Below are positions 9,321 through 25,007 of a stretch of DNA of 64,000 bases, one piece after another. Position numbers and translations under genes: made by a program. This stretch comes from Alphaproteobacteria bacterium (lineage in GTDB: Bacteria > Pseudomonadota > Alphaproteobacteria > Bin95). The stretch is from the NCBI GenBank assembly GCA_964291285.2, contig OZ219786.1, positions 512,001 through 576,000 of the forward strand, read 5' to 3'. The notes under the pieces are model-generated. The model saw only the letters and a list, made by a program, of their open reading frames with translations, had not been told where the DNA came from and ran no database searches. How positions within the stretch are numbered: the first letter of the stretch is position 1; each line of letters starts with the position of its first letter.

Positions 9321-9857
9321 TCACCCGAACACGAAGATCAGGTGGTTCGACGCGCCGCCCTCGTCGCAGTTGGCGTTCAGCCACGCCAGGTCGCGCACCA
9401 CCGGGTCCCCCCGGTGGACCCTGGCCGGCGCGGCCGCGCGCACCCGCATGCGCACGATCCCCGAGCCCGAGCGCGTGCGCCCGACATAGGCCTCGCCCAG
9501 CGCCTTGCAGGTCTCGTCGTCCAGTTCCTCGAAGGTGATCTGGAACCGCCCGCCATTGCCCAGGATCGATACCGCCGCGCCGAACGGGTGCTCGATCGTC
9601 GCGGCGCCGCCCGTCCCCTTCCGGGCCCCGTCCGGGATCCGTCCGAACCCCGCCAGGACCGGCACGAGGTCGTCGTTGTTCGTCCCGTAGCTCGACTGGC
9701 TCGCATAGGTGCTCTCCACATTCGCGCGCAGCATGTTCAGCAGGCGGATCGACTCGCCCTCCTTCAGCTTGCTCGTGATGCCGTTGTAGATGCTCACCAC
9801 CACGACCAGGGCCACCAGGCCCGCGATCACGCTCAGCAACACTCCGACCGGGTTCAT
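9321..9857 (-). CDS. pilS: Type IVb major pilin PilS-like, copy 1 (Arg-rich D-region)
   Basis: Same length (178 aa) and near-identical to 8699..9235; GGAGG RBS directly after the pilR stop. Confidence 0.8.
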   Translation of the reverse strand: MNPVGVLLSVIAGLVALVVVVSIYNGITSKLKEGESIRLLNMLRANVESTYASQSSYGTNNDDLVPVLAGFGRIPDGARKGTGGAATIEHPFGAAVSILGNGGRFQITFEELDDETCKALGEAYVGRTRSGSGIVRMRVRAAAPARVHRGDPVVRDLAWLNANCDEGGASNHLIFVFG

Positions 9858-9869
9858 GCCCCTGCCTCC

Positions 9870-10934
9870 TCAGTAGTTCTGCACCGCGGTCGCGATGTCG
9901 AAGCTGACCCAGAAGATCCACAGCATCTGCGCCGTGCCGAGCGTCATCAGCACCGTGTTCAGCACCATGGTCTTCGCCCGCATCACCGCCTCCGAGCGCT
10001 CGATCCAGCGCTCCACGAAGCCCGCCAGCGTCTCCTCCCAGTCCGCCCGGCCCTCCATCGCCGCCGCCACCGCCACCAGCGACTTGTCCGGGAACTCGTG
10101 CCCGCTCGCGGCCAGCGCCGAACCGAACCCCAGACCCTCGTTCAGCATCAGCCCGCTCACACGCCGCATCCGCGAGCGCACATAGGCCGACGCCCCGCGC
10201 TCGAACTGCGCGAACGTCGCCGCGTTCAGGTCCACCCCGACGCGCAGGAACTCCACGCACACGAACAGGAACCCCGAACCCGACAGCATCCGGTAGAGCG
10301 AGAACGGCGCGAACCGGTCCGCGAACGCCCGCCCCCGGCCCGTCCAGCGCAGCACGACCAGCCGCCCCGCCAGCACCGCCAGCACCAACAGCAGCCCCGC
10401 CTCCAGGTCGTGCGCGTAAAGACCCTCCGAGGCCCAGGCCAGCACCGCCGAGAACGCGTCCCAGCGCGACGGGTCGCTCACCGCGCGCATCGCCGGGAAC
10501 ACCTCGTAGCCCATGAACCACGTCATGCCCGCGCAGCCCAGGAAGATCACCAGCGGCCAGAACAGCGCCATCGCAACCGCCCGCACCTGCTTCGCGCGCA
10601 TCTCCGCCACCCGCGCCGCCGCCAGGAACAGCGTCTCCGCCCGCGCCCGGCCCAGGCCGTAGAACACCATCGCCTCCGAAGCCGGAACCCAGCGCGACAG
10701 CTCCACCGCGAACGCGTCGCCGCCCGCAGCCAGCGCCCTGTTCCAGTCCCGCAGCATCTCCACCCGGAACGTCTCGCGCGCCTTCGCCCGCATCACAGCC
10801 TCGAGCGCCTGCGGCATCTCCAGCCCGCCGCGCAGCAGGTCGTGCATCAGGTACCAGATGTCCACCCGCGCGCCCGTCCCGGCCGCCAGGAACCGGCGCG
10901 CCCGCAACCGCAACGCCGCCGCAAGGCGCCTCAT
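9870..10934 (-). CDS. pilR: Type IVb pilus inner-membrane platform protein (PilR/GspF family)
   Basis: GspF-like topology; PFSLYRMLSG and GHEFPD motifs; ATG overlaps the ATPase stop. Confidence 0.8.
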   Translation of the reverse strand: MRRLAAALRLRARRFLAAGTGARVDIWYLMHDLLRGGLEMPQALEAVMRAKARETFRVEMLRDWNRALAAGGDAFAVELSRWVPASEAMVFYGLGRARAETLFLAAARVAEMRAKQVRAVAMALFWPLVIFLGCAGMTWFMGYEVFPAMRAVSDPSRWDAFSAVLAWASEGLYAHDLEAGLLLVLAVLAGRLVVLRWTGRGRAFADRFAPFSLYRMLSGSGFLFVCVEFLRVGVDLNAATFAQFERGASAYVRSRMRRVSGLMLNEGLGFGSALAASGHEFPDKSLVAVAAAMEGRADWEETLAGFVERWIERSEAVMRAKTMVLNTVLMTLGTAQMLWIFWVSFDIATAVQNY

Positions 10935-12556
10935 GCCGCCGCCTCCGACGCCACCGCCGCCAGACCCCGCAGCGCCTCGGCCGCCTCCGGGATCTCCGCC
11001 CCCTTCAGCAGCGCGTCCGCCGGGTCCACACGCCCCGCCGCGACCGCCCGCCAGATCCGCCGCCCCAGCGGAACCCCGCCCATGGCATCGACCCAGTGGT
11101 TCCACGCCCCGATCGCGTCACGCTTCCCCACGAACCGCAGGTAGCCGTCGTTCGGAACGATCCACTCCGCCACCGCCTGCTGGCCCTCGTAGCCCGCCCA
11201 CGCCGCCAGAGAGAGCGCCGACTGGCCCGGACGGCGGCATGCGCCGCAGCCTTGCGGGTCGCGGTAGCGCACCCGCCCCCCCAGCACCGCCTCGAGCCCC
11301 TCCGGAAGCGTCCGGCCCTCCGGCAGGCCCGGACGCGAGCAGTGGCGGCACAGCAGCGGCACCAGCGTCTGCTTCATCAGCAGGCGGATGTTGCCCCGCT
11401 TCGTCACCTCCGCCTCCGTCACCCCGAGGTCCATCAGCCGGAACAGGATGCCGTTCGCACTGTGCACGTGGATCGTCGTCCACACCTGGTGGCCCGAGTC
11501 GATGAACTGCAGCACCTGGCGCGCCCCCGAACGGTCGCGGATCTCGCCCACCATCCCCGAGGCCGGGTGAAGCCGCACGAAATGCATCAGGCCCGCCTGG
11601 AAGTGCAGGTCGCGCTCCTCGCCCGCGCCCCCCGTCGGAACCGCGATCTGGACCGCGCCCTCTATGTCGTATTCGACCGGGTCCTCCAGCGTCACGAGGT
11701 TCAGACGGCCCCCGTGCTCGCGCATCTGCAGCGCCAGGTTCGTCGCCAGCGTCGTCGACTTCCCGTCCCCCGTCGTCCCCCCGATGACGATCCCGCCGTA
11801 TTTCGACATCCGGATCTCGCGGAACAGGCTCTCCACCTCCTCAGTGAACCCCAGGTCCGCCAGCGTCCGCGCACTCCCGCCATGGTCCCGGTAGAACAGC
11901 CGCGCGAACAGGTGGTGGCCGTCCGGCTCGTCCGGACCCGCCTCGCAGCGCAGCGCCGCGATCTCCTCCGGCAGCGGAAACGCCTCCGAACGACGGATGC
12001 TGAACCCCTGGAAGCTGCCCCGCTGCAGCGAGGTCTGCCGCGACCCCTCGTCCTTCACGTAGAACAGGAACCCGTAGACCCGGTCCGCGTCGCTCGTCGT
12101 CAGCGCCTCGCCCAGCGCCAGCTTGCGGTCGTTCACGATCGCGAACACCCGGCACCCGTCCGCGCCCTTCTCGAACACCACATCCGAGGCCCGCGCCCGC
12201 GCCGCCTCCGTGAAGATCCCCGCAACGCTCTCCACGATCGCCGGGTCGACCTCCGGACCCTCCGGACCCGAACCGTGGCCGCGCCACACCGCCGCCACCT
12301 CCCGAAGCGACGCCGCCTCCTCGCGCAACGGACCCCGGACCGCCCCCGAACGCTGCAACTCGACCAGAAGCGCCCGCGCCTCCTCGTCGTTCGCATAGCC
12401 CCGAGCGAACATCACCCGCCCGTCCGACCACACCGCGCAGCGCTCCCGGAACCGCGCGTCCATCCGTCCCCAGCGCACCAGACCCGACGGCAGGACCTCC
12501 GGCGCCGGCTCCCGGAACAGCGCACGATGCCACAGCGGACGGCGACCGGCCGTCAC
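10931..12556 (-). CDS. pilQ: Type IVb pilus assembly ATPase (PilQ/GspE family)
   Basis: Walker A GTTGDGKST, TLEDPVEY Asp box, VGEIRD Walker B, GHQVWTTIH His box, CxxC pairs. Confidence 0.9.
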   Translation of the reverse strand: MTAGRRPLWHRALFREPAPEVLPSGLVRWGRMDARFRERCAVWSDGRVMFARGYANDEEARALLVELQRSGAVRGPLREEAASLREVAAVWRGHGSGPEGPEVDPAIVESVAGIFTEAARARASDVVFEKGADGCRVFAIVNDRKLALGEALTTSDADRVYGFLFYVKDEGSRQTSLQRGSFQGFSIRRSEAFPLPEEIAALRCEAGPDEPDGHHLFARLFYRDHGGSARTLADLGFTEEVESLFREIRMSKYGGIVIGGTTGDGKSTTLATNLALQMREHGGRLNLVTLEDPVEYDIEGAVQIAVPTGGAGEERDLHFQAGLMHFVRLHPASGMVGEIRDRSGARQVLQFIDSGHQVWTTIHVHSANGILFRLMDLGVTEAEVTKRGNIRLLMKQTLVPLLCRHCSRPGLPEGRTLPEGLEAVLGGRVRYRDPQGCGACRRPGQSALSLAAWAGYEGQQAVAEWIVPNDGYLRFVGKRDAIGAWNHWVDAMGGVPLGRRIWRAVAAGRVDPADALLKGAEIPEAAEALRGLAAVASEAAA

Positions 12557-13503
12557 CGCGGGGCCCTCGACCGCCAGGGGAGCCGGTCGGCCCGCCAGCC
12601 CGTCACGCGCACCCCCGGAGGACGCGCCTCGACCGCAACCACCGCAACCCCGCCCGGAAGACTGTCGCCCGCCTCCACACGCCACACCTTCTCGCCGTCC
12701 GTCACCGCCGCGCGCAGCGCAGCGCCCGATCCCGTCACCGCAAACCAGCCATAGTCCGGGGGCGGCTCCGGAGCCGGCGCCGTCCCGGCCTCCTCCGCAC
12801 CGTCCGCCTCCTTGCGCGCCAGTTCCGCCCGCGAGGCCTCCAGCATCGCCTCATGCGCCGCGCGCACCCGCGCGTCCGCCTCGCGGCGCATCGTCTCCCG
12901 ACGCAGCGCCTCCTCGGCGCGCGCCGACGCCGACGCCCGCAGCGCCGCCGCAAGCTCCCGGTCCGAAGCCACGATCTCCGCCAGAAGCGCCTGGCGGTCC
13001 CGGCACAGCGCCAGGATCTCGCGCTCCAGGCCCAGCGCCTCGCTGAACTCCCCCTCCTCCACCGCGGACGACAGCATCCGCGCGATCGCCGACCGCGGAC
13101 ACTCGAACACACGCAGGATCGCCGGCTCATGCGACCCGGCGGCGGCAGACGAGGCCGGGGCGGCGGCGGGAAAGACGGACCGCCGCCCCGGCGCGCCGGC
13201 GGACAACGGAACGGCCGCGTTGTCCGAAGCCGCCGGCGTCCCGCGATCGACACCGCCCGCGCCCGGGGAAGCGGCGGACGGTCCGGGGCCGGGAAGGGAA
13301 GGCGGGGTTGCCGTGGCCGGTGACGGCAGCGAAGACGGCAACGGCGGAAGCGCGTCCCCCGTCCCCTCCGGCAACGCCGACGCCGGTGACAGCAGCAACG
13401 CCCCGGACAGCAGGCCCGCAAGCAGGGGCAGGACCCGCGGACGCGCCCGGACACCCGCCGGAGACTTGACGAAAACCCGCCCCCCGGGACAGGATGCGCC
13501 CAT
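12553..13503 (-). CDS. pilP: PilP-like pilus biogenesis protein
   Basis: Signal peptide, Pro-rich linker, coiled coil and C-terminal V.G.G..LRA...GDSLPGG beta domain; GAAGGA RBS before ATG 13503; located before pilQ. Confidence 0.65.
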   Translation of the reverse strand: MGASCPGGRVFVKSPAGVRARPRVLPLLAGLLSGALLLSPASALPEGTGDALPPLPSSLPSPATATPPSLPGPGPSAASPGAGGVDRGTPAASDNAAVPLSAGAPGRRSVFPAAAPASSAAAGSHEPAILRVFECPRSAIARMLSSAVEEGEFSEALGLEREILALCRDRQALLAEIVASDRELAAALRASASARAEEALRRETMRREADARVRAAHEAMLEASRAELARKEADGAEEAGTAPAPEPPPDYGWFAVTGSGAALRAAVTDGEKVWRVEAGDSLPGGVAVVAVEARPPGVRVTGWRADRLPWRSRAPR

Positions 13504-13972
13504 GATGTCGTCCTTCGACACCCTCGCCGCCGCCGAAGCGCTCCAGGACGCCGGCGCCAAGCCCGAACTCGCCAAGGCCATGGCCGCCCAGCTCAAGGCC
13601 GCGGCGAAAGCCGGCGAACCCGTCACGAGACCCGAACTCGACGCCGCTCTCGGCGCACTCAAGGCCGAACTGCTCGAACGCTTCGCCGCGAGCGAAAAGG
13701 GCCTCAGCGAACGCATCGCCGCGACAGACCAGCGCATCGCCGCGACCGACCAGCGGATTGCATCCGTCGAGAAAAACCTGATCGAGCGCATCGCCGCGAG
13801 CGACCAGCGGACCGCCGCGACCGAGACGCGCCTGCTCGGACGCATCGCGGAGACGGAACGCCGGCTGATGGACCGGACGGCCGCCCTCGTCTGGCGGCTG
13901 TTCGGCGCCATGGTCGCGCTCGCCGGCATCACCATCGCGGTGCTCGAATACCTGCGCACGCCGCCCGGATAG
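13502..13972 (+). CDS. DUF1640/CCDC90-like membrane-anchored coiled-coil protein
   Basis: FDTLAAAEALQDAG head, VTRPELD neck, RIAATDQ-type repeats, C-terminal TM helix; candidate promoter TTGACG-18-CAGGAT at 13466-13495. Confidence 0.75.
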   Translation: MMSSFDTLAAAEALQDAGAKPELAKAMAAQLKAAAKAGEPVTRPELDAALGALKAELLERFAASEKGLSERIAATDQRIAATDQRIASVEKNLIERIAASDQRTAATETRLLGRIAETERRLMDRTAALVWRLFGAMVALAGITIAVLEYLRTPPG

Positions 13973-14049
13973 CCGCCGGCGGCCCCGGAAGCCGCAACCG
14001 GGGCCGCGAAGCGAAGACGGCGGAAGGCGCGCAGCATCGCCCGGCGCCC

Positions 14050-15297
14050 TCAGTACCGGTCCGGCGTGTGCCGGGTCCACACGGTCGGCTGCATGTCGAG
14101 ATCGGCGGCCAGTTCGCGCCAGCCGATGCTGCGCGGCCCCGCCGGATCGTCCCGGACCGTCATCTCGAGGCGGCCCCGCGTCCAGCGCCAGGTTCCGTCG
14201 AAATGCGGGCCCTCGACCAGGGTCCCCGCCTCGTCCACCACCGAGAACTTCCCCTCGGGGTGGAACACGAAACGCCTGTCCGCATACGCCTCGCCCATGA
14301 ACGCCAGCGAACGCGGATAGGGACGCGCGATGAACTCGTCCGTCAGCTGGAACGCCGCATGGCGGTGGCCGGTGGGAAGATAGTAGAACGGATAGCCGAC
14401 CAGGTAGCGGTAACGGACCCTCGGGCCGTCATGAATCTCGATCCACTCGCCCGCCTCGTCTGCCGTGCGCACGATGTCCCAGTAGCCGTCCGTCATGTTC
14501 CAGTGCCCGATCCGCCAGAGCTCCTCCCGGTCTCCGGCGCGCACATAGGTGAGGCCGATGCGTTTGTTGGCGAACAGCACGTTGCCTTCCTGGGCCTCGA
14601 GCCAGGCATCCACTTCCGCCCTGGTGGTCGTCGGCCTGTTGCCGGAGCGGCCGAGGCCGGTGCGGCCCGGCGACGTCAGCTGCGAGCCCGGGAAGTGCCG
14701 GACCGGCGCGTCCGGGTCCTGGCGGCGCAACTCGTCCATCCTCAGCGAGGTCTGCTTCTCGTTGATCCGGATATGCGCCGGGATCTTCAGGTCTGGACAG
14801 GCATCCGCCAGGGCGCGCGGCCAGCTGTCCTGGATATGGCCCCGGGTGGCGACGATATAGGCGCCCTTCCGGTAGATTTCGGTCGCAAGCCCGCCGGTCT
14901 CCGGATCGTAGAAATGGGCTGAATACCGGCGCTCCTGCGGGTTGCGTTGCCACAGCAGTTCGCCGCCGTTCCCCGCCCTGTGCGTCGACCAGCGGATATT
15001 CGACGAGGTCCACCAGGATCGCTTGCCTTCGACGCGGCCGGGCACACACCGATAGACTGTCCCGTCGGCGCCGAAGACCACCCCCTGGACGACATTGCGG
15101 AACCGCCCGGTCCCCTCGAACACCCTCACCCTGTCCGGGAGCAGCCGGTTGTAGAAGTCGGCGCTGTAAGGCGTAAGGTCGTAGTAGGCTTTCCTGCCGG
15201 AGTTCGCCGACTGCCCGTGCGCCGTGCAGGAGGCCAGCGCCGCGCCCGCAAGCGCCAGCGCCAGCAGTCTCCCTGCCGTGAGGTTCGACGGCTTCAT
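14050..15297 (-). CDS. Hypothetical lipoprotein (415 aa)
   Basis: Lipobox ALASC; aromatic and beta-rich; ATG is 1 nt after the desaturase stop with a GAAGGGAG RBS. Confidence 0.7.
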   Translation of the reverse strand: MKPSNLTAGRLLALALAGAALASCTAHGQSANSGRKAYYDLTPYSADFYNRLLPDRVRVFEGTGRFRNVVQGVVFGADGTVYRCVPGRVEGKRSWWTSSNIRWSTHRAGNGGELLWQRNPQERRYSAHFYDPETGGLATEIYRKGAYIVATRGHIQDSWPRALADACPDLKIPAHIRINEKQTSLRMDELRRQDPDAPVRHFPGSQLTSPGRTGLGRSGNRPTTTRAEVDAWLEAQEGNVLFANKRIGLTYVRAGDREELWRIGHWNMTDGYWDIVRTADEAGEWIEIHDGPRVRYRYLVGYPFYYLPTGHRHAAFQLTDEFIARPYPRSLAFMGEAYADRRFVFHPEGKFSVVDEAGTLVEGPHFDGTWRWTRGRLEMTVRDDPAGPRSIGWRELAADLDMQPTVWTRHTPDRY

Positions 15298-15298
15298 G

Positions 15299-16123
15299 TC
15301 ACTGTCTCCCTTCCGTCTCGCGATGGGGTGGCCGGGCCCGGATGCGGGCCCCGCAAGAGGCCAGTCTGAGCACGAGGCCCGCCATGTCGAGCGTCGGGTG
15401 GAATACCGCCCGGCCCGGCGCGGCGTGGTGGTTGTTGTGCCAGCCCTCGCCCCAGGTGAGCAGCGCGACCGCCGGGTTGTTGCGGCTGTCGTCGCCCGTC
15501 CGGTGCGGCTGCGCCCCCCAGCGGTGGCAGGCCATCGTCACCAGCCCGCCTCCCCAGAGCGTCGCCGCCACCGGGACCGCCCAGCCGAAAACCGCCAGAC
15601 GCCAGTCCAGCGCCGCCAGCAGCACAGGCCAGCCGAGCGCCAGCGCCAGGTAGTGCCGGTGCAGCCACAGGCCGAACCGGTCGCCGCGCAGCTCGCGCCG
15701 GAACGCCGCCCTGTCCGCCGGCGCGCCGTAGCTCCCGACCAGCAGCGCCCGCCAGCCGAGCCGGCCGGCCGGATGCGGGTCGCCCGCCCGGTCGGCATGG
15801 GCGTGATGGCGCCGGTGCGTCACCGCCCAGGCGGGCCCGGTCCCGAAGCAGCCCATCACCCCCAGCAGGTGGAACATCACCACCGCCCGGCGCGGCGCCG
15901 CGAAACTCCGGTGCGCGAAGTAGCGGTGGAACCCGATCGACAGCCCGACGCACCCGAACAGGAAATAGCCCGACAGCGCGAGCGCCCACCAACCAAGACC
16001 CGCTTCGGCGAACGCCAGCGCCCACAGCGCGACCGCGCCGGTGACGATCTGGACCGCGCCGAAGAACGTCATCGGCGCGCCCGCCCTCCGGAACAGCTCC
16101 GTTCCTGCCGCCGGCGCGCTCAC
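15299..16123 (-). CDS. Membrane fatty acid desaturase (delta-9 acyl-CoA/acyl-lipid type)
   Basis: Three His boxes HRYFAHRSF, HRRHH and GEGWHNNHH; GTG overlaps the GNAT stop. Confidence 0.9.
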   Translation of the reverse strand: MSAPAAGTELFRRAGAPMTFFGAVQIVTGAVALWALAFAEAGLGWWALALSGYFLFGCVGLSIGFHRYFAHRSFAAPRRAVVMFHLLGVMGCFGTGPAWAVTHRRHHAHADRAGDPHPAGRLGWRALLVGSYGAPADRAAFRRELRGDRFGLWLHRHYLALALGWPVLLAALDWRLAVFGWAVPVAATLWGGGLVTMACHRWGAQPHRTGDDSRNNPAVALLTWGEGWHNNHHAAPGRAVFHPTLDMAGLVLRLASCGARIRARPPHRETEGRQ

Positions 16124-16635
16124 AGCGCGAGCTCGTAGTTGCCGCCCGTCAGCCGGAAGCCGAGGCGCTTCAACAGCCTGTCGGTCCGCGCGATGTCCAC
16201 GCCGGAGGCGACATTGACATGCAGGTGGACCGCGCCGCGTTCCCCGGCCCACCGCCGGCAGGCGTGCAGCAGCTTGATCGCCGCCAGCGACCCCCGATGC
16301 TCCGGCAGCACGTAGAAGGCGAGGATCGAGGCGCCGGGCGCGGACGAGTACCAGTGGGCCCCGACAGCCGCCGACAGCATGCCGACCGTGCGCTCGCCGC
16401 GCTCGGCCTGCACCAGGCAATACCTGCCGGGCTTCGCGAGGCGCTCGACGACGCCCCGCCTGACAAGCTCCGCATCGAAGGAGAGCGCCTTGTCGCCCAT
16501 CTCCTCATACGCGCAGCGGGCCAGGCTCACCCGCGCGGCGATGTCCTCTTCGGACCGCGAGAACCGGACGGTCACGCTCCCGGGCCGGGCGCCTGCCGGG
16601 CGGGGCAGGGCGGCAACTGCCGGGGCCGCGCTCAT
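16120..16635 (-). CDS. GNAT family N-acyltransferase
   Basis: FYVLPEHRGS acyl-CoA binding motif and LKRLGF motif; ATG overlaps upstream stop. Confidence 0.85.
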   Translation of the reverse strand: MSAAPAVAALPRPAGARPGSVTVRFSRSEEDIAARVSLARCAYEEMGDKALSFDAELVRRGVVERLAKPGRYCLVQAERGERTVGMLSAAVGAHWYSSAPGASILAFYVLPEHRGSLAAIKLLHACRRWAGERGAVHLHVNVASGVDIARTDRLLKRLGFRLTGGNYELAL

Positions 16636-18455
16636 TCCCTGCGCTCCCCGACCCTGAGCGAGACATCCCAAAACGCCATCGGGCCGTCCCTGCCGACATA
16701 TCGGCCCTCGCCGAACACGGTGTTGCCGGCGGCGCTTCGCACGACGCCGTCGCTCGTCAGCGCGATGGACCGGATGCCGGCCTCGTCGAGGCTGCGCAAC
16801 TCGCCCGGATCGCTCTCGCCGTCCCGGTCGAGGTCCTGCCAGACCCGGAACAGGGCCCACTCCGCATCCTCGGGGCCGAGCGCGCCGTCGCCGTCGGTGT
16901 CGAAGTGGCGGAGGCCCTCCAGGTCCGTGCGCGCGCCCGGCACATAGGAGACGAAGGACAGTTCGTCATGCGCCGCGATCCGCCCGTCGCCGTCCTTGTC
17001 GTAGGCAAGGAAACCGTCGTCGGGCGCCGCCCAGGCCATGCGGGTGCGGTAGCCGTCGCCGTTGATGTCGTAGAACGCGGTCGAGTCCTCGAGCGCCACC
17101 AGTTCCACGCCGTCCCCGTCAAGGTCCAGCACGATCGGCTTGGCGCCGCCGCCGCCGCCGTTGTTGTTGCCGGTGTTGTCGCCGAAGCCCACACTGGCGT
17201 CGTTGTCGTCCGGGTCGTCTCCGGCCTCGGTCCCGTCATTGTCATTGTCAGCTCCTCCCGGGCTCTCACCCTCGTTGCCGGGCAGGACGGGATCGGTCGG
17301 CGGCGGCCGGGTGGGCGGCGGCGTCCTGGGCCTGTCGGGAGGATCGGGATCGCCCGGCCGGGGAGGCGCGACCGGATCGGGCGTTACCGGAGCCGGGCGC
17401 CACGGCGGGTCCTGCGGCGGCGGCGGAGGCCGGCAGTTGTTGTCGGTGCGCACCAGGCGCCGGGCCCCGACCAGGCGCCATGTCCGCACCACCTCGGCGC
17501 CCGGACGGACCTGGAAGTCCCGATACTGCGTGTCCTGCTCGTAATGCGAGGTGCAGCCGCCCGACCACCCCGAGGGGCAGGAGCAGGAGCCCGTGGTGCG
17601 CTGCACCGGCCCCGCATACAGCCGGATCACCGGGTCCGGGAGCGGGTCCGGGGCCGGCGCCTGCGCATACACATGCGGGCAGAGGCCGCCGGCATGGCGC
17701 CACGGCCCGCATTGCGCCTGCGCGCCGAGACCCGCCCGGCGGTCGCAGTCGCGCGGCCAGAGATGCGCCGCGTCCGGCGCCGTCGCCGCAAGGTCCCGGC
17801 CCCGCGCGTCGCCCGCCCCGCGAATGTCCGTCGCCTGGATCGGAACACGCCGCGACTCGCGGAAGGTCTCCGTCGCCGAACCCGGACAGGCCACCGTCCG
17901 GAACTCCGTCTCCCAGCGGAACCCCGTCACCGTGCGCGCCGGATCGGCCACCGCCCCCACAAGCCCGACACGATCCTCCCCCAGCGAGGGAACCGACATG
18001 CAGGCCGGCAGCGACGCGTCGGCCCGCCCGAGCGCCCCCGCCGCAATGCGCGTGTTCGCCAGGATCACATGCAGCCCCGCCCGGCCGCCCCGCACCGGCG
18101 CCACCTGAACCTCGCGATGGCCCCGGCCCACGCCCTTCAGCTCGTCGCTGGCCGCATGGACCGCCAGCACCCCGCCGCAATAGCGCGCCGTCAGGCCCCG
18201 CGCCGTCCAGGACCCGAGCCACCAGGCCCCGGAGGGCGGGTCCGAGGCGCCGTCCCATTCGCTCCGCCAGAGCCGGGCCGCGTCCGTCACGCGGATGCGC
18301 TCCCCGACGCTCGCAAAGGCGGTCCGGATCGCCGCCGCATGCGCCAGCGCCTCCTGGCGCCGCGTCCGGTCCGGATCGCCCGTCTGCGCCACGGCGCCGG
18401 GCGCGATCGCGGCGAGGGCCAACGCCAGCGCCGCTGCGGTTCCCGCCGTTCTCAT
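16632..18455 (-). CDS. Secreted Cys/Pro-rich adhesin-like protein with C-terminal FrpC-type self-processing-module-like Ca-binding domain
   Basis: Sec signal; Cys-rich segments; PIVLDLDGDGVEL..DDGFLAYDKDGDG..FRVWQDLDRDGESDPGELRSLDEAGI parallels the Neisseria FrpC SPM. Confidence 0.8.
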   Translation of the reverse strand: MRTAGTAAALALALAAIAPGAVAQTGDPDRTRRQEALAHAAAIRTAFASVGERIRVTDAARLWRSEWDGASDPPSGAWWLGSWTARGLTARYCGGVLAVHAASDELKGVGRGHREVQVAPVRGGRAGLHVILANTRIAAGALGRADASLPACMSVPSLGEDRVGLVGAVADPARTVTGFRWETEFRTVACPGSATETFRESRRVPIQATDIRGAGDARGRDLAATAPDAAHLWPRDCDRRAGLGAQAQCGPWRHAGGLCPHVYAQAPAPDPLPDPVIRLYAGPVQRTTGSCSCPSGWSGGCTSHYEQDTQYRDFQVRPGAEVVRTWRLVGARRLVRTDNNCRPPPPPQDPPWRPAPVTPDPVAPPRPGDPDPPDRPRTPPPTRPPPTDPVLPGNEGESPGGADNDNDGTEAGDDPDDNDASVGFGDNTGNNNGGGGGAKPIVLDLDGDGVELVALEDSTAFYDINGDGYRTRMAWAAPDDGFLAYDKDGDGRIAAHDELSFVSYVPGARTDLEGLRHFDTDGDGALGPEDAEWALFRVWQDLDRDGESDPGELRSLDEAGIRSIALTSDGVVRSAAGNTVFGEGRYVGRDGPMAFWDVSLRVGERRE

Positions 18456-19744
18456 CCCGCACTCCCCGCCGCGCCGTCCGCTGTGCCGTCCACCGGCAGG
18501 CCCGTCAGCGCCGTGAACTCGCTCTGAAGCATCCGGAACGGGCGGGCCCGCCGGCAGGCGAATACCCAGCCCCCCTCCCGGCTCCACGCCGCGGACACCA
18601 CCTCCAGGCCCTCGACCGCCGTCAGCATCGCGACCGCCTCGCCCAGCGGGCGCACGGTCCGCAACTCCACCTCGACCTCCGCTCCCCACTGCCCGTAGCC
18701 GATATCGAACCCCCGCAGCCCCAGCGCCCTGTCCAGGCGGCGGCGGAACGCGGCAGGCTCCGGCCAGGGCGCGGCCTCCGGGTCGTGGCGCGCCAGCACC
18801 GCCGGCAGCGGGCTGAACGCCGCCGCCGTTCCCGTGTTATCCAGAAGGGCGTTGCGCCAGTCTCCCAGCATGTCCTGCGCCAGAGGCACATGCACGCGCG
18901 GGTCGAGGCCCTCGCGCAGGCCCCAGTGCACCTCCAGCACCGCCTGCCCGGACAGGCCGCCCGGCGACAGGCCGGACCGCGCCTGCACGAAACGCGGATG
19001 GCACGCCGCCCCCTGCCGCTCCCACCCCGACATCGTGACCCGGTGCGCCTCCAGCGCCGCCCGGCAGTGCCGCAGGAACGCCCCGCTCCGCACCACCGCA
19101 TCGACCATGGGCGGTTCCTCCGGCGGCGCCTCCTTCAGACCGGCGAATACCAGTATCTCGTCCCGATGGTTCCAGGCCGGCCAGGCCCCGCCGCCGGCCA
19201 GCACCAGCAGCGCCGCCGCGATGCCCGCGCGCCAGGTCAGGCGCACCTTCGGCGCCTCGACCATGACCGGCAGGCCCGCCGCCGCGCCCGCAAGCGCCCC
19301 GCTCTCGACAACCGCCCCGGCCCCGAACAGCTCCGCAAGGCCCGGCGTCGCGATCACTGCCGCATCCTGGCCGCCGGCGCCGCCCAGCGCCCGGTGCGCC
19401 TGGTCCGCCGAACGGTAGACGCTCTCCCCGCCCGGCAGGATGCGCCCGCCCGCGCTCCGCACGACCCCGACACGGTTGCCGCCGTCCTCCTCCACGAAGG
19501 CCGCCCAGGCGGCAGGCGCCCCCGCGCCGCCGGAGGCCAGCACCGCCCGCAGCGCCCCGGCAAGCGGCGGCAGGCCGCCCGGCGCCTCCGCCGCCCCCAG
19601 AAACCCCGTCTGCCCGTCAAGCTCCACCATCCAGGCATGGCCGCGCTCGCGCGCCGCCCGCGCCGCACGGCCCCGGGACAGCACATCCCGCTCCCAGTCG
19701 AGACCGGCCGCAAACCGCCGCCCGCCCACCGCCAGCACGCTCAT
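18452..19744 (-). CDS. pilO: Type IVb pilus accessory protein PilO2-like
   Basis: N-terminal FAAGLDW motif, central TM helix, located directly after the secretin. Confidence 0.7.
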   Translation of the reverse strand: MSVLAVGGRRFAAGLDWERDVLSRGRAARAARERGHAWMVELDGQTGFLGAAEAPGGLPPLAGALRAVLASGGAGAPAAWAAFVEEDGGNRVGVVRSAGGRILPGGESVYRSADQAHRALGGAGGQDAAVIATPGLAELFGAGAVVESGALAGAAAGLPVMVEAPKVRLTWRAGIAAALLVLAGGGAWPAWNHRDEILVFAGLKEAPPEEPPMVDAVVRSGAFLRHCRAALEAHRVTMSGWERQGAACHPRFVQARSGLSPGGLSGQAVLEVHWGLREGLDPRVHVPLAQDMLGDWRNALLDNTGTAAAFSPLPAVLARHDPEAAPWPEPAAFRRRLDRALGLRGFDIGYGQWGAEVEVELRTVRPLGEAVAMLTAVEGLEVVSAAWSREGGWVFACRRARPFRMLQSEFTALTGLPVDGTADGAAGSAG

Positions 19745-21417
19745 CCGCCCGCCTCCCGGTCCGCGCCCGCCGGTCCTGCACCGCCGCCCGCAGCCGCGAC
19801 CGGAGCCGGGCCGAACCCAGCCCGCTCCGATATCCCAAGAGGCGCCCCGATCTCCGCCGTCACCAGAAGCGCCGTCTCCACACGCGCCAGGTCCGCCTTC
19901 CGGCGGCCCTCCGGGAACGGCACGTCCTCATGGACCGTCCCCGACCGGGTGCCCGTGGACGAACGGTCCCGGAAGCCCGTCAGCAGCAGCGTCTCGCCCC
20001 GCGCGATGCGCTGCGTCGCCACGATCGCGCGCCGCCCGCCCGCAGGAAGCTGGATCGCGTTGCCCGCAGAGCCGAAGGACGTGAACGCCGGACGGTCCTG
20101 GATCGTCGCCGTGATCCGCGCCAGGACCTCGTCATGCCCCACGACCCGCGCCACGAAACTCAGACCGAACCCCGACGACACCGTCCCCGGCGTCAGCTTG
20201 TACGACCGCACCCCGTCCTTGACCTCCGTGGCGACCTCCTTCAGGTAGGCCTGGTCGAACAGGTCGTAGAACTGCGCCGGGCGCCCGTTCAGCGTCGGCA
20301 CGTCCACCGACAGCAGGCGCGAGGTCGTGCCGACCTTGCGGAGCGCGCTCACCGTCGCATCCAGCGTCTTCGTTCCGGCGGTCACCGGCTTTACTAACGA
20401 AATCGCGCCGCCCTGGAACCCGACCTGCAGGTTCGACCCGAACGCCTCCGGCAGCAGCCCCGTCAGACCCACCTCGTAGTCCGAGCCCCGGTCGAACCGC
20501 ACCGAGTAGAGATGCACGCTCAGCGTCACCGGGCGCAGCACATGCCGGTTCACATGCTCCAGCCAGGACCGCACACGGTCCACCGCCCGCGGCAGGCCGG
20601 TCACCGTCACCGTCGAGGCCGCCGCCGAGATCGACACCCGGCCTTCGGAACCCGCGGCAGCCCAGGCCTGCGCCCCGATCTCCGACCAGGGCTCGTAGCT
20701 CATCTCCGAGGAGATCGACTGCTCCGAACTCCCCGAGGTCGCCTCGCCGCCGCTGCCCGAGGTTGTCGTCGTCACCGACCAGGTCTGGCGCCCGACCAGC
20801 GCATGCACCCCGAACACCCGCGTCTCGGAGCGCACCACCTCGACCAGCTCCGCCTCGCCGTCATACTGCCACCGGTAGCCCGCGCACTCCGTCCACGCGT
20901 CCAGCAGCCGGTCCAACGGACCTGCCCACACGCCGGCCTCGCCGGCCAGTTCGTCCTCCCAGGAGGCCAGCCAGGCCTCGCACGCGCCGCCCGTCGGCGC
21001 CGGCTCGCCATCCGTCGGCGCATCCGCCCCGTCCATCGGTGCATCCACGCCGTCCATCGGCGCCGGCTCGTTGTCCCTGTGGGCGGCTCCCTGCCACACG
21101 GCCCCGGTCAGCTGCACCCCGATGCCGGTCGCATCGGATATGCGGCGCGCCAGGACCTCGTCCCCCGGACCGTCGCCGAGCGTCACCACGATCCCGGTCT
21201 CCGACCTCAGATCGGCCGGAAGAAGGGAACGCTCCGGCGCCACCGCCGTCAGCGCAAGATACGGGTCCTTCGAGCGCGTGAGAGAGCGGAAACCCGGCCG
21301 CTCCGGACCCGGAGACCCGAGCGAATCAAGCCGGCCCTCTACCTCCGAGGCCGCCCGGTCGACCTCCTCATGATCGAGCCAGCCGCAGCCCGGCAGCGCA
21401 ATGGCCGCCGCCAGCAA
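19741..21417 (-). CDS. pilN: Type IVb pilus lipoprotein secretin (PilN/BfpB/TcpC family)
   Basis: Lipobox LPGC; GPLDRLLD N-domain; TLNGRPA, LTPGTVSSG and GETLLLTGF secretin motifs; start uncertain. Confidence 0.85.
   Translation of the reverse strand: MLAAAIALPGCGWLDHEEVDRAASEVEGRLDSLGSPGPERPGFRSLTRSKDPYLALTAVAPERSLLPADLRSETGIVVTLGDGPGDEVLARRISDATGIGVQLTGAVWQGAAHRDNEPAPMDGVDAPMDGADAPTDGEPAPTGGACEAWLASWEDELAGEAGVWAGPLDRLLDAWTECAGYRWQYDGEAELVEVVRSETRVFGVHALVGRQTWSVTTTTSGSGGEATSGSSEQSISSEMSYEPWSEIGAQAWAAAGSEGRVSISAAASTVTVTGLPRAVDRVRSWLEHVNRHVLRPVTLSVHLYSVRFDRGSDYEVGLTGLLPEAFGSNLQVGFQGGAISLVKPVTAGTKTLDATVSALRKVGTTSRLLSVDVPTLNGRPAQFYDLFDQAYLKEVATEVKDGVRSYKLTPGTVSSGFGLSFVARVVGHDEVLARITATIQDRPAFTSFGSAGNAIQLPAGGRRAIVATQRIARGETLLLTGFRDRSSTGTRSGTVHEDVPFPEGRRKADLARVETALLVTAEIGAPLGISERAGFGPAPVAAAGGGAGPAGADREAGG
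20991..21070. repeat. Imperfect 21-bp in-frame tandem repeat in pilN (APMDGVD/APMDGAD/APTDGEP)
   Basis: Seen directly in DNA and protein. Confidence 0.7.
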
Positions 21418-21539
21418 AACGGCCCGGACAGCCGCTCCGGAACCCGATGCGAAGCCGCTCGAACCGCCCGAAAGTCCTTGCCGCGCCGTGGTTGACAGGA
21501 CCCCGAATCCCTCTCACCTTGTCTCCGAATGCGAAGGTC

Positions 21540-21855
21540 GGTCGGCTGCCAATCATGAACATGACCGCGTTGTATGTCTTCGATATCGACCAATCAAGAA
21601 AACAAGGCCAAATCAGCAAAAATGTTTCACTACATTTTTCTCAACCCGCGCCAATCATCACCTCACTATCCAATCATTTCAACAACTTGGCGAAACCGCG
21701 CCCGGCAAAAATCGACACCGACTGTTCAAGTTGGGCTTGAGCATCGAGGACTTGGCGTTCTCCACGAGATGGAGTATACAGAAGGGTGCAGGGTAACTGC
21801 TTAAAAGTCGTTACCTGCCCTCAGAATGTGTCGAATGGCATGTGAAGGAGTTCGA
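21540..21855. promoter_or_regulatory. AT-rich divergent intergenic region between the pil operon and cas8e
   Basis: Sharp GC drop; imperfect inverted repeat GCAGGGTAAC..GTTACCTGC at 21788-21818. Confidence 0.5.
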
Positions 21856-21963
21856 ATGCTAATCACCATCCGAGAGACCTGTTGCCGCGTCCGCCGCTTG
21901 CTGTCGACATTGCGAGTCCGGGTTGCGGCGGGCATCGAGATTCAGGTATGCCGCCGCCCATGA
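21856..21963 (+). CDS. 35-aa small ORF translationally coupled to cas8e
   Basis: GAAGGAG RBS at 21844-21850; MLITIRETCCRVRRLLSTLRVRVAAGIEIQVCRRP; TGA overlaps the cas8e ATG (ATGA at 21960). Confidence 0.4.
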   Translation: MLITIRETCCRVRRLLSTLRVRVAAGIEIQVCRRP

Positions 21964-22995
21964 CGACATCCTGCAACACACCACTGAATTTGATTCGCGC
22001 TCCCTGGCTACTGCTCCGGCGGCGAAGCGGGCATGTGCAACAGGTTGCGCCATTTCGAGTTGTTGATGGGATCGACAACGATCCTTTCGTCGCGTTCGCC
22101 TGGCCCCGGCCCGATTTCAACGGGGCCGCCCACGAGTTCCTGATCGGGCTGCTGAGCACAACTGCCGCGCCGGAAAACGGGGACGAATGGGAGGATTGGT
22201 GGGCGGAGCCGCCCGCGCCCGAGGTTCTGTGGGGCCGGTTCGAAGCCGTCGCGGATGCCTTCGACCTCGACGGTCCCGGCCCCCGCTTTCTGCAAGATAT
22301 TGATCCGCTCGACGGCGCCGATGAAAAGACGGTTGCCGCGCTCCTGATCGACACGCCGGGCGCACAGACGCTGCGCAATAATGCCGACCTCTTCGTGAAG
22401 CGTGGCAGCGCTCCAGTTTTGGGGCGAGCCGCGGCGGCGATGGCGTTGTTTACGCTCAATGCCTATGCGCCATCGGGCGGTGCCGGGCACCGCACCTCTC
22501 TTCGCGGCGGCGGGCCCCTGACGACGCTCGCACTTGCAGGCGACCATTTGTGGGGCCGGCTCTGGCCCAATGTCGAGACGGTCGAATCGATCAAGGACCG
22601 CTGGCCGCGTCCCTCGCTGCCGCCTGACGATCCGGCTGCGATGTTCCCTTGGCTTGCCCCGACTCGCACATCCAACCCGAAGGCCGGTGGACAGGCGACC
22701 ACGCCTGCTGACACACACCCGCTGCAGGTATATTGGGGCATGCCCCGGCGCATCCGTCTGGCGTTTGAGAAGTCGCAAGGTCGGCGTTGCGCGCTTACGG
22801 GCGTCGAAGACGAGGTGGTCGTCGCGGCGTACCGGACCCGGAATTATGGCGTCAACTACTCCGAAGGCTTCGAGCATCCACTGACGCCCTACTACGCCCA
22901 GAAGGCTGGTAGTGAAAGGCTTCCCGTGCATCCGCGACCGGGTGGGCTCAGCTACCGGCACTGGCCTGGTCTGGTGGCGCCGAGTGCCGACGGGT
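21960..22995 (+). pseudogene. casA: Type I-E CRISPR Cascade large subunit Cas8e/Cse1, 3'-truncated by an IS
   Basis: NLIRAPW, PRPDF..EFLIGLL, RFLQD, APSGGAGHRTSLRGGGPLTTL, YWGMPRRIRL and EHPLTPY motifs; the frame runs into IS sequence at 22996 and stops at 23117. Confidence 0.9.
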
Positions 22996-25007
22996 CAGGG
23001 CGAATTAATTGTCTGCCTTTGGGCCATGTTGAGGTGGGGTCCGGGGTGGCTATTTTTTTCTTGATATGGCAGTGTGCCGGTCATGGCGAGGTTTCTGTTT
23101 GCGGGTGTTTGGGTTGATCTTCGCGCGGTCACGGTGCGCCCGACCTGGGGGGCACGGGAGCACCGGCGCTGGGACGATTTGGTAGCGGCGCACCACTATC
23201 TGCGGTTCCACGGCATCATCGGCAAGGGTCTGCGCCATGTCGCGGTTCATGGCGAGGCCTGGCTTGCCCTGGTTGGCTGGCAGCCTGGAGCGTTCAAGGT
23301 GGGAGCGCGGGACCGCTGGATCGGGTGGTCGGCGGAGCAGCAGTTCCGTCGCCTGCATCTGGTTGCCAACAACTCGCGCTTTGTCATCCTGACGCCTGAG
23401 CGGGTTCCCAACCTTGCCTCGCGGGTGCTGGGGCTGAGCGTGCGGCGGCTGTCGCAGGACCTGCGGGCGGCGCATGGCTATCCGGCTGTTGTGGCGGAGA
23501 CGTTTGTGGACGTCTCGCGCTTCGCCGGCACCTGCTACCGCGCGGCCAACTGGCGCTCTTTGGGTCTGACGCGCGGCTTTGCCCGCGAGCCCGGAGGGGT
23601 GGCGCGCTGGCGTCACCACGGCCAGCCCAAGGAGGTCTTCGTGTTCGAACTGACACACGGCGCCCCCGAGGCGCTGAGCCATCCCGAGATACCGGCAGAC
23701 TGGAACGCTGAGCAGCACACCGAGCCGATGGCGGCGCCCCGGCTGCGCAGCCTGTTCGAGTGTTTGGGCGAGGTGCCCGAATACCGCCATGCCCGGGGCA
23801 AGCGCTATGCGCTCACCACCATTCTGACGCTGGCCGTTGCCGCCCGGCTTGCCGGATACCGGGGTGTGAACGCCTTCGCCCAGTTCGCCGCCCTGCTCTC
23901 CCAGAAGCAACTCAAGGCGGTGGGCGCCTTCTGGAGCCCATCCAGGCAGTGCTACACGCCGCCGGCGGTCACCACCTTCCACAACATCCTCGCCGCCCTG
24001 CCGCCACAGACCCTGGACAATGCCATCGGCCAGTGGGCCGGACAGCACAGCAGTGCGCACGCGCCTGTGGCCATGGACGGAAAGGATTTGCGCGGTGCCT
24101 CGAAGCAGAGCGAAGACCGGCGCAGGAGGATGGTCGCTGCGGTGGCGCATGACACCGGCGTGGTCCTCGGGCAGGTCGAAGTCAGCTCCAAAAGCAACGA
24201 AATCCCGGCCGTGCGCGAACTCTCCAGCGGTCTCGACCTCACAGGCCGGATCGTCACCATCGATGCGATGCACGCCCAGCACGAGACCGCGCGTTGCCTG
24301 CTCGAACGCCGTGCCGACTACGTGGTCAGCGCGGTGAAGGGCAACCAGCAGACCATCCTCGAAGACCTCAAGGCGATCGACTTCAGCGATGCGCCCTGGC
24401 ACGAAACCGTCGACAAGGGCCATGGTCGCATTGAGCGCCGACGCTGCGCCGTCGTCGACCTCTGCGCTGCCGAGTGGGACGGCTACGCCCACCTTCACGG
24501 GCGCCGCCAGGCAATGCGCATGGAACGCGAGCGCAAGATGCTCAAAACCGGCAAGCGCAGCATCGAGGTCACCTGGAGCCTGACGTCGCTTGGCGCAGAG
24601 CGAGCCGGCCCCAAGGAGCTTCTCGATCTGGTGCGCAACCACTGGCACATTGAGAACCGTGTGCACTATGTGCGTGACTTCACCTATGACGAAGACCGTT
24701 GCCGGGCATATGTGCGCCACCTGCCCGGAAATCTGGCCTGCTTGAGCAACGCGGCCATCGCTATCGTGCGCTGCGACGGACGCTTCCGATATGTACCCGA
24801 GGCCAACCGGCACTACGCCGCCCGCGCCCAAGAGGCCCTCGACGCGATTATGATCGCGCCCAGAGGCTGATACCCCACCCCCCACCGCAATACAGGCTCG
24901 GGCCGAAGAACGGCGCAGCAAAACAACTGCGCCCGTCGAGGACGAAAACACTGGACCGCGGCATCAAGAAACCACCATGACGGCGGCCAGAAACGTCTGG
25001 GGTTCCC
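22996..25007 (+). mobile_element. ISAs1-family insertion sequence (left end CAGGGCGAATT; right end not identified)
   Basis: CAGGGC terminus at the casA breakpoint; transposase inside; right boundary approximate. Confidence 0.65.
23074..24870 (+). CDS. ISAs1 transposase with N-terminal DUF4338 (DruA-like) domain
   Basis: HHYL, NNSRFVIL, NLASRVL, ETFVD and GTCYRAANW (DUF4338); MDGKDLRG, KSNEIPA, DAMHAQ, KGNQ, HGRIE and HWHIENRVHYVRD (ISAs1 DDE). Confidence 0.9.
   Translation: MPVMARFLFAGVWVDLRAVTVRPTWGAREHRRWDDLVAAHHYLRFHGIIGKGLRHVAVHGEAWLALVGWQPGAFKVGARDRWIGWSAEQQFRRLHLVANNSRFVILTPERVPNLASRVLGLSVRRLSQDLRAAHGYPAVVAETFVDVSRFAGTCYRAANWRSLGLTRGFAREPGGVARWRHHGQPKEVFVFELTHGAPEALSHPEIPADWNAEQHTEPMAAPRLRSLFECLGEVPEYRHARGKRYALTTILTLAVAARLAGYRGVNAFAQFAALLSQKQLKAVGAFWSPSRQCYTPPAVTTFHNILAALPPQTLDNAIGQWAGQHSSAHAPVAMDGKDLRGASKQSEDRRRRMVAAVAHDTGVVLGQVEVSSKSNEIPAVRELSSGLDLTGRIVTIDAMHAQHETARCLLERRADYVVSAVKGNQQTILEDLKAIDFSDAPWHETVDKGHGRIERRRCAVVDLCAAEWDGYAHLHGRRQAMRMERERKMLKTGKRSIEVTWSLTSLGAERAGPKELLDLVRNHWHIENRVHYVRDFTYDEDRCRAYVRHLPGNLACLSNAAIAIVRCDGRFRYVPEANRHYAARAQEALDAIMIAPRG

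Follow-up and report, generated by a model that had tools for sequence, protein, structure and literature searches.

A cassette interval between pilO and pilP of an R64-like type IVb pilus operon, with a GNAT acyltransferase gene beside a Lys-Pro variant of the self-processing module

What do the genes lodged between pilO and pilP of a type IVb pilus operon contribute to the pilus, and why are an acyltransferase and a desaturase encoded among them? The question is raised by a 64,000-nucleotide stretch of an alphaproteobacterial genome (Alphaproteobacteria bacterium, GTDB Bin95; assembly GCA_964291285.2, contig OZ219786.1, positions 512,001 to 576,000, forward strand), called the window below, whose own numbering is used throughout unless a contig or locus label is given. 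Sequence comparison shows the interval to consist of two layers. The constant layer comprises a secreted protein whose N-terminal fold is predicted to be PilM/pilin-like and a lipoprotein of two predicted barrels, both lineage-specific parts of the pilus apparatus. The exchangeable layer comprises the end domain of the exported protein together with matched cytoplasmic enzymes, which are swapped as a unit. In the present operon, the end domain is related to FrpC's self-processing module (SPM), and we tentatively favour the reading, possible rather than probable, that the GNAT enzyme modifies the lysine at the junction of this domain, with an SCD-type acyl-CoA desaturase as an exchangeable tailoring enzyme. 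The features concerned are the following:

16632..18455, minus strand: secreted protein of 607 aa (open reading frame (ORF) and ATGA overlaps)
17955..18389, minus strand: predicted N-terminal PilM/pilin-like fold of this protein, residues ~23–167 (predicted structure match)
16635..17141, minus strand: SPM-like Ca-binding domain of this protein, Lys439 then Pro440–Glu607 (junction ...GGGGGAK-PIVLDLDGDG)
16120..16635, minus strand: GNAT acyltransferase of 171 aa without a signal peptide (Pfam Acetyltransf_1)
15299..16072 (alternative GTG start 16123), minus strand: short membrane acyl-CoA desaturase-like enzyme of 257 aa (Pfam FA_desaturase)
14050..15297, minus strand: lipoprotein of 415 aa (lipobox LASC, Cys24)

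The secreted protein is built from a Sec signal (residues 1–23, read from the sequence and ending in AVA before QTGD), a PilM/pilin-like N-terminal domain, a Cys-rich β domain, a Pro-/Gly-rich linker and a C-terminal SPM-like domain, and it matches no Pfam family. About 58 clusters of homologues exist, half of which end in other C-termini. A phmmer search against the PDB aligns residues 440–594 with residues 1–161 of the FrpC SPM chains 6sjw/6sjx at E 1e-23 (6sjw_A, 1.1e-23), and the Ca loops DLDGDG, DKDGDG, DTDGDG and DLDRDG, as well as both Trp residues (W451 and W519 in FrpC), align with those of FrpC, but Lys439-Pro440 takes the place of the scissile Asp414-Pro415. In the excerpted text of PMC7078468, Asp414 forms an anhydride at the scissile bond and roles are assigned to the Ca-loop and Trp residues; in that of PMC7846742, the D414A substitution abolishes cleavage. 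Because a lysine replaces the scissile aspartate, the aspartic-anhydride self-cleavage known from this published work cannot run in the 607-aa protein. By homology, the end domain is a member of the SPM fold family that fails its defining Asp-Pro feature. Lysine recurs across the pil loci, where 10 of the 12 SPM junctions read are Lys-Pro and the other 2 Lys-Gly-Pro. The preliminary description of this DNA, made from the letters alone, had taken the product for an RTX-related adhesin. No result points to adhesion, and the RTX assignment has to be withdrawn, since the protein contains 0 GGxGxD motifs, against 31 in a giant protein of genome G230 and 34 in a Cereibacter protein (both described below), and carries a Sec signal instead; moreover, no HlyB- or HlyD-type genes were seen among the ORFs scanned in positions 1–26000.

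Among solved structures, PilM and pilins come nearest to the N-terminal fold predicted for this protein, the match being a modest one. The AlphaFold model of residues 20–350 has a pLDDT of 79 and a pTM of 0.54. When the first 150 residues of this model, with its pTM of only 0.54, were aligned by VIA-align, the best match was 3eoi, a 'putative PilM' of E. coli B7A (Z 6.7, rmsd 4.3, 114/123 residues), followed by a match at Z 4.1 and then by many type IV pilins and pseudopilins. A Foldseek search of the PDB with the model returned nothing at E <= 0.001. At the level of sequence, PilM was not recovered: hhalign against the PilM of an IncI plasmid gave a probability of 0.1, the profile search of the PDB was negative, Pfam PilM (PF07419) matched none of 43 members of the secreted-protein family, and PilM appeared in 0 of the 50 remote homologues scanned among 82 returned from a search of 1.84 billion proteins.

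The division of the interval into two layers is seen when related loci are compared. A pattern scan with the lipoprotein alignment over the genomes of 185,579 species found seven loci in six alphaproteobacterial metagenome-assembled genomes (MAGs), all ordered pilN-pilO-…-lipoprotein-…-pilP as far as the contigs extend. With PilO as the query, 12 of 37 genomes of the order (this one included) gave matches, all within one genus, several members of which carry 3–5 PilO copies. Of the 27 loci returned, 24 have the gene for the secreted protein's N-terminal domain after pilO; of the other three, one runs into a contig end, one has an IS21 insertion and one holds a PilO fragment. The cassette survey covers 22 distinct loci, namely the 4 of this genome, 16 full regions (L043–L058) and two further MAG contigs, L010 and L011; the N-terminal domain is kept in 21 of them and the lipoprotein in 20, and the content between these two is distributed as follows:

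SPM end domain, GNAT and desaturase: 6 loci
SPM end domain, GNAT and radical SAM enzyme: 6 loci (in one, the enzyme gene is truncated and joined to that of the lipoprotein)
SPM end domain and GNAT fragment: 1 locus
CFI-box-CTERM end domain (NF041770) and polyprenyl synthase: 2 loci (one also with a methyltransferase)
CFI-box-CTERM end domain alone: 1 locus
Long Cys-repeat tail, without enzymes: 2 loci
Gly/Ser/Asp tail, without enzymes: 3 loci
Insertion sequence (IS) element directly after pilO: 1 locus

A single inserted four-gene block, as had been proposed at first, was rejected because the first and last genes are constant and the middle genes vary. The expected co-occurrence across pil loci accordingly stood for the secreted protein's N-terminal domain and the lipoprotein and failed for the enzymes, which vary by cassette and behave as exchangeable cargo.

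Within the exchangeable layer, the GNAT gene lies directly after the SPM domain in all 13 loci that have this domain (one a fragment) and in none of the 8 loci with another end domain. SPM and GNAT also stay together when the third gene is swapped; loci with near-identical PilO carry different third genes, as in L048 (radical SAM) and L049 (desaturase) and again in L052 and L053. On the PilO tree, the cassette type changes 13 times, against a mean of 12.8 for shuffled labels. This scatter and the near-identical PilO pairs indicate that the interval from pilO to pilP is a recombination hot spot in which an end domain and its enzymes move as units. It is conceivable that GNAT and desaturase are neutral or selfish cargo of such a hot spot with no role in the pilus, since the cassette content is as scattered on the tree as shuffled labels and since opposite-strand coiled-coil genes, a Uma2 nuclease gene and IS elements have likewise gathered there. 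We regard this as very unlikely in view of the overlapping start and stop codons, the strict pairing of SPM with GNAT through several swaps and in unrelated loci, and the identities across the same loci, which amount to ~74–84% for SPM, 67–78% for the desaturase and 74–87% for the radical SAM enzyme, against 37–57% for PilO.

The other end domains of the secreted-protein family form a varied set. That of a sister-locus protein (L012) matches the CFI-box-CTERM model NF041770 with 45.1 bits (cut-off 40), another is of the pretoxin-HINT kind (P0248), and those at L054 (1310–4162) and L055 (1221–3758) consist of long Cys-containing repeats of ~35–40 residues each. Several of these end domains belong to kinds that are known elsewhere for self-processing. 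At L051 (4054–5418, G010:C2), a deletion fuses the first 168 residues of the radical SAM enzyme to residues 129–414 of the lipoprotein, and the fusion is stored in the protein database as a single protein of 483 aa (P0082).

The lipoprotein closes the variable genes on their downstream side. Its lipobox reads L-A-S-C24, with Cys24 conserved in at least 90% of 40 homologues. None of its ~149 homologous clusters is named, it matches no Pfam family and nothing in 72,556 plasmids, and it differs from FrpD of Neisseria meningitidis in having no sequence match to any solved chain. The model (pLDDT 87.6) contains two β-rich domains, and a Foldseek search of the PDB with it gave nothing at E <= 0.001. 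Compared with lipocalin-type barrels, residues 40–220 reach a best Z of 7.8 (8wb2, 119 residues), a range in which unrelated models also fall (Z <8); most of the 50 fold matches listed are lipocalin-like barrels, with ToxS, Blc, ApoD and others after 8wb2. A complex prediction of lipoprotein residues 40–415 with the secreted protein's N-terminal domain scored 0.00, which says nothing for or against binding. These resemblances bear on an explanation in which the enzymes make a small hydrophobic molecule (an unsaturated N-acyl amine here, a prenyl compound elsewhere) that is bound or displayed by the lipocalin-like lipoprotein and may serve as a mating signal; in pil loci, GNAT and SPM would then be joined by physical linkage only. 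It would suit both the barrel-like first domain and the lipid-type enzymes of the alternative cassettes (SCD-like desaturase, polyprenyl synthase with methyltransferase, and a radical SAM enzyme near GDGT-MAS). We consider it quite unlikely, because GNAT stands beside Lys-Pro SPM domains in loci with neither lipoprotein nor lipid enzymes, the lipoprotein occurs without enzymes in L044, L046, L054, L055 and L011, and the lipocalin match lies at a level that unrelated models attain as well.

The pairing of GNAT with the SPM domain, on which the favoured reading of a modified junction lysine turns, extends beyond pili. Among 400 sampled genomes of the class, distant GNAT homologues (30–40% identity) occur in five. 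In G230, the homologue directly follows the gene of a 5029-aa protein with the SPM junction …SK-PITFDLDGDG and is itself followed by a true HlyC (E 4e-31) and HlyB; in G123 and G309, it lies within ~4–6 kb of Lys-Pro SPM genes. On plasmids, a homologue flanks a Lys-Pro SPM protein in Martelella pMM593 (…GK-PVLLDLDGDG) and in Neorhizobium pHAMBI540a (…GK-PVLFDLDGDG), and in Cereibacter sphaeroides pDE it is two genes from such a protein (…SK-PLIIDMDGDG), next to traG. The pDE pair is a second GNAT-SPM pair that adjoins mating genes, here those of an F-type conjugation system. In an Agrobacterium record, known from the matches alone, GNAT and SPM matches are 8 kb apart. The small ORFs beside GNAT in Cereibacter, Phaeobacter and G123 are unrelated to one another, and no conserved third partner was found there.

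The residue before the proline follows the same division. SPM-like domains occur in 36 of the 400 genomes, in addition to the genome studied here, and 29 of the 30 SPM loci returned were informative when the best locus of each genome was read. The residue was Lys in 7, Asp in 6, Ser in 6, Pro in 3, Ala in 2, and Phe, Trp, Tyr, Cys and Thr in 1 genome each. Of the 7 Lys-Pro genomes, 4 had GNAT nearby, and the 22 others lacked it throughout the genome at E <= 1e-8; the chance of such a split is 35/23751, or ~0.0015, for genomes that are not independent. As controls, nine plasmid SPM proteins without a GNAT match in their plasmid were read, and the residue before Pro is Asp in 4, Ser in 2, Ala in 2 and Cys in 1. 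On the evidence of gene neighbourhood, several unrelated gene contexts show this GNAT subfamily paired with Lys-Pro SPM domains, which suggests that the enzyme of the pilus operon is functionally tied to the secreted protein through its SPM end domain. The initial proposal that GNAT may act on the secreted protein gains support to this extent, by the co-variation inside pil loci and by the Lys-Pro SPM neighbours outside pili.

Some of these loci have features of their own. The type I-secreted protein of 5029 aa (L069, 733–19207, G230:C1) carries its Lys-Pro SPM near the C-terminus, and its secretion locus contains two different acyltransferases. The pDE locus of C. sphaeroides 2.4.1 (L072, 9025–14640) encodes GNAT, a 178-aa protein and a 1544-aa Ca-binding Lys-Pro SPM protein directly after traG. 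At L088 (G160) and L101 (G250), a Hint domain with the C-terminal residues ...VHN immediately precedes the Lys-Pro SPM junction, and the junction may serve another purpose there.

As to its own kind, the GNAT enzyme matches Pfam Acetyltransf_1 (PF00583) at E 6.5e-8 (33.3 bits, cut-off 20.7) and also Acetyltransf_7. It does not match Pfam HlyC (PF02794), and the parallel with HlyC-type enzymes drawn in the preliminary description does not extend to family membership; the enzyme would, if at all, act in the manner of HlyC. All 45 close homologues are named GNAT, the nearest NCBIfam models are AAC(6'), and only generic GNAT clusters were found in the ESM Atlas. Such relatives invite a simpler account, in which GNAT merely acetylates, and so neutralises, the junction lysine or another SPM lysine for regulation or protection before export, for instance against undesired reactions or binding, with the desaturase or radical SAM enzyme and the lipoprotein acting separately, e.g., in remodelling membrane lipids round the pilus machine. 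The family matches are indeed to enzymes that use acetyl-CoA (Acetyltransf_1, AAC(6')), the six non-pilus GNAT-SPM loci have neither a desaturase nor a radical SAM gene, and the third cassette gene is freely swapped. Acetylation alone would nevertheless leave unexplained both the alternation of two different C-H-activating enzymes in the slot beside GNAT (6 loci each) and the presence of lipid enzymes such as polyprenyl synthase in the non-SPM cassettes, and we hold it to be possible yet rather unlikely.

The desaturase matches Pfam FA_desaturase (PF00487) at E 3e-15 (56.9 bits, cut-off 29.7) and is homologous to the SCD1 structures 4zyo/4ymk at E 2e-11 (4zyo, 2.2e-11), with residues 31–219 aligned. 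Like the mammalian SCD1-type enzymes, it has three His boxes (HRYFAH, HRRHH and HNNHH), but it is only 257 aa long. The ESM Atlas gave only generic acyl-CoA-desaturase clusters, of which the nearest are short forms mostly of viral origin. Its acyl-CoA (SCD1) type would allow it to supply a transferase that depends on CoA. In this genome, it is found only in the element copies, apart from one fragment (G000:C3:869224–869595, 58% identity over 103 residues), which is remote from all pil loci and may be the remnant of a further element. The radical SAM enzyme that takes its place elsewhere has TrsS, MoaA and the lipid-tail enzyme Tes/GDGT-MAS as its best named relatives, and its closest solved relative is GDGT-MAS (7tol, E 1e-18).

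If the junction lysine is indeed the target, the following sequence of events can be envisaged. GNAT would acylate this lysine, or another residue of the SPM-like module, on the unfolded cytoplasmic precursor, drawing on acyl-CoA, and the SCD-type desaturase, or the radical SAM enzyme in sister cassettes, would tailor the acyl group or its donor. Once Sec had exported the module and calcium had driven its folding, it would work in its modified form at the pilus machine with the lipoprotein, which would handle the product. The swapping of cassettes would diversify mating or exclusion specificity among co-resident elements. The step from desaturase to GNAT is the weakest of this mechanism. The link between the two enzymes is weak because a radical SAM enzyme replaces the desaturase in six loci and all six non-pilus GNAT-SPM loci are without it.

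Besides this replacement and absence of the desaturase, a number of observations weigh against this mechanism. Part of the co-variation of SPM with GNAT inside pil loci is explained by linkage, because the two are adjacent, and the pil-locus relatives all belong to one genus, are mostly MAGs and are not independent. GNAT resembles an ordinary small acetyltransferase. The mechanism would require an acylated lysine to travel through the Sec channel, a passage that is not known for such proteins. The Lys-Gly-Pro junctions of two pil loci depart from the Lys-Pro rule. Two genomes with a GNAT homologue (G148 and G208) have no SPM, the Phaeobacter homologue has no SPM neighbour within 9 kb on each side, and its plasmid is not among the SPM matches listed (40 of 168). 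Conversely, the Lys-Pro genomes G146, G160 and G250 yield no GNAT homologue even at E 0.01.

A wider claim can be built on the same pairing. Lys-Pro variants of the FrpC SPM and a dedicated GNAT would then form an undescribed enzyme-dependent system of protein modification (lipidation or linkage), which conjugative type IVb pili would share with giant adhesins secreted by type I systems. In pili, it would be one of several cassettes of end domain and enzyme, i.e., acyl (GNAT with desaturase or radical SAM), prenyl (CFI-box with polyprenyl synthase) and HINT, which would give a pilus-associated protein chemical diversity and in this way determine how specific mating or exclusion is between co-resident elements. 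As a whole, this claim is unlikely.

Several known systems resemble parts of this arrangement. The operon follows that of the R64/IncI1 thin pilus (pilI-pilV) in the common order pilN-pilO-...-pilP-pilQ-pilR-pilS-(pilV)-pilU and in adjoining transfer genes with DotD/TcpQ domains. In an IncI plasmid, however, pilO2 and pilP overlap directly, which agrees with the contiguity that the preliminary description gives for the R64 operon, and pilM precedes pilN; here, five genes lie between pilO and pilP, pilS is present in two copies, the whole genome gave no match to Pfam PilM, and the examined stretch showed no lytic transglycosylase gene. By kind, the operon belongs with the R64-like type IVb pili.

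The clip-and-link system of FrpC and FrpD (N. meningitidis) is alike in the SPM homology, Ca loops and Trp pair described above. It also agrees in that frpD, a lipoprotein gene, forms an operon with frpC according to PMC5233953, as a lipoprotein gene does here. The present protein differs from FrpC in its Lys-Pro in place of Asp-Pro, its Sec signal, the absence of RTX repeats, the position of the SPM at the extreme C-terminus and the dedicated GNAT. The activation of RTX toxins by HlyC/CyaC is alike in the small acyltransferase gene beside the gene of an exported Ca-binding protein, in the conserved lysine as a candidate site and in the need for modification before export. HlyC uses acyl-ACP, and the enzyme here is, by contrast with HlyC, a classical GNAT (Acetyltransf_1); both kinds are present in the G230 locus, so the two are not equivalent. 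TcpF of Vibrio cholerae and CofJ of ETEC are non-pilin proteins with Sec signals that are encoded inside type IVb pilus operons. No sequence or fold match to them was seen, and neither the placement between pilO and pilP nor the partner enzymes recur there.

Type IVb conjugative pili are known mainly from R64, in which the choice of recipient is set by the PilV shufflon. The present locus suggests a second, cassette-based route to diversifying a pilus-associated protein. To our knowledge, SPM-like domains have so far been understood only through Asp-Pro self-cleavage. The GNAT is a possible new partner enzyme for these domains, which are common in large alphaproteobacterial adhesins. Were GNAT to modify the junction lysine, this would be a new post-translational chemistry with a possible use in protein engineering, and would offer a handle on how co-resident mobile elements distinguish each other. 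In open-access text, no paper was found that connects a type IVb pilus with a desaturase and an acetyltransferase, none that connects a self-processing module with an acetyltransferase and none that mentions the CFI-box; among the matches listed from the clip-and-link RTX literature, no title concerns Lys-Pro modules.

Around the interval, the remaining genes of the operon are arranged as follows:

19741..21417, minus strand: pilN, type IVb pilus secretin lipoprotein (NCBIfam TIGR02520 PilN family, E 3e-42; Pfam Secretin weak)
18452..19744, minus strand: pilO (PilO2-like), 430 aa (position and gene order as in the IncI operon)
13502..13972, plus strand: coiled-coil protein of 156 aa with a C-terminal transmembrane helix and DUF1640/CCDC90-like relatives (codon-position GC)
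12553..13503, ORF open upstream to 14037, minus strand: pilP, signal-peptide protein (tblastn to PilP of related loci)
10931..12685, minus strand: pilQ, assembly ATPase (Pfam T2SSE, E 5.5e-41)
9870..11105, minus strand: pilR, platform protein (Pfam T2SSF weak, E 2.5e-4; gene order)
8699–9235 and 9321–9857, minus strand: two pilS pilin genes in tandem (weak matches to Pfam PilS and Bundlin)

The window has a G+C content of ~72%, and long spurious ORFs are therefore abundant in it; reading frames were chosen by codon-position GC. The G+C at third codon positions (GC3) is 0.82–0.95 for the minus-strand frames of pilN, pilO, the secreted protein, GNAT, the desaturase and the lipoprotein, and the plus-strand frame at 13502–13972 obeys GC3 > GC1 > GC2. 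The pilN product scores 144.9 bits against TIGR02520, under the curated cut-off of 287.65, and the pilO product has no Pfam or NCBIfam match. The two pilS genes are 90% identical to each other. Downstream of the lipoprotein gene come pilP, pilQ, pilR, the two pilS, PilV-like genes, a prepilin peptidase, a nuclease lipoprotein, a TcpQ-domain protein and DotD. The operon is of the R64-like thin-pilus type, joined to an I-type transfer system and borne on an element.

ATGA overlaps join pilN to pilO, pilO to the secreted-protein gene and the latter to the GNAT gene, and the desaturase and lipoprotein genes meet in TGA-C-ATG with a 1-nt gap. The four chained ORFs of the preliminary description are thus all present with their overlaps. 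The chain to pilP is broken by the plus-strand gene at 13502–13972, which brings the number of genes between pilO and pilP to five. The GTGA overlap between GNAT and the desaturase is likewise there, but the start conserved in the diverged paralogue on contig C3 is ATG 16072, which lies 45 nt past the GNAT stop with GGAGG upstream. Homologues of the coiled-coil gene vary in position and copy number among related loci, and one relative matches Pfam CCDC90-like at E 3e-12. Antisense to this gene, the pilP-frame ORF opens 12 nt past the lipoprotein stop; its first residues, MLRAFRRLRF, are similar to those with which PilP begins in loci without the plus-strand gene. PilP may either have a 170-aa extension or start at ATG 13503, which shares two bases with the plus-strand ATG 13502. 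A scan of 13300–14200 for promoters and terminators gave 1 terminator-like site, against 0.7 expected, and is uninformative.

The genome (6.13 Mb in 5 contigs) contains the whole pilus/transfer region four times, three copies being near-identical and one diverged:

C2:275730–296116, C2:512574–533417, C5:68492–89201 and C3:2094411–2118955: the four region copies in this genome

Across the interval studied, the two C2 copies and the C5 copy share 92–93% nucleotide identity. The diverged C3 copy is 40% identical in PilO, 35% in PilP, 57% in GNAT, 71% in the desaturase and 39% in the lipoprotein; it keeps the gene order, has one pilS and lacks the plus-strand coiled-coil gene. The C3 copy also carries IS21- and IS1595-type insertions. 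Among the transfer genes of the window, the ORF at 2002–3435 combines a staphylococcal-nuclease domain with a C-terminal lipoprotein barrel of the TbpB/Slam type and is missing from the second C2 copy. Just past pilN (21400–24870), the G+C content falls from ~75% to ~65%. This stretch contains a CRISPR Cse1/Cas8e gene (21882–23117; Pfam E 9.5e-81), which covers only positions 1–303 of the 450 in the profile, and after it a DDE transposase whose N-terminal part is DruA-like (23074–24870).

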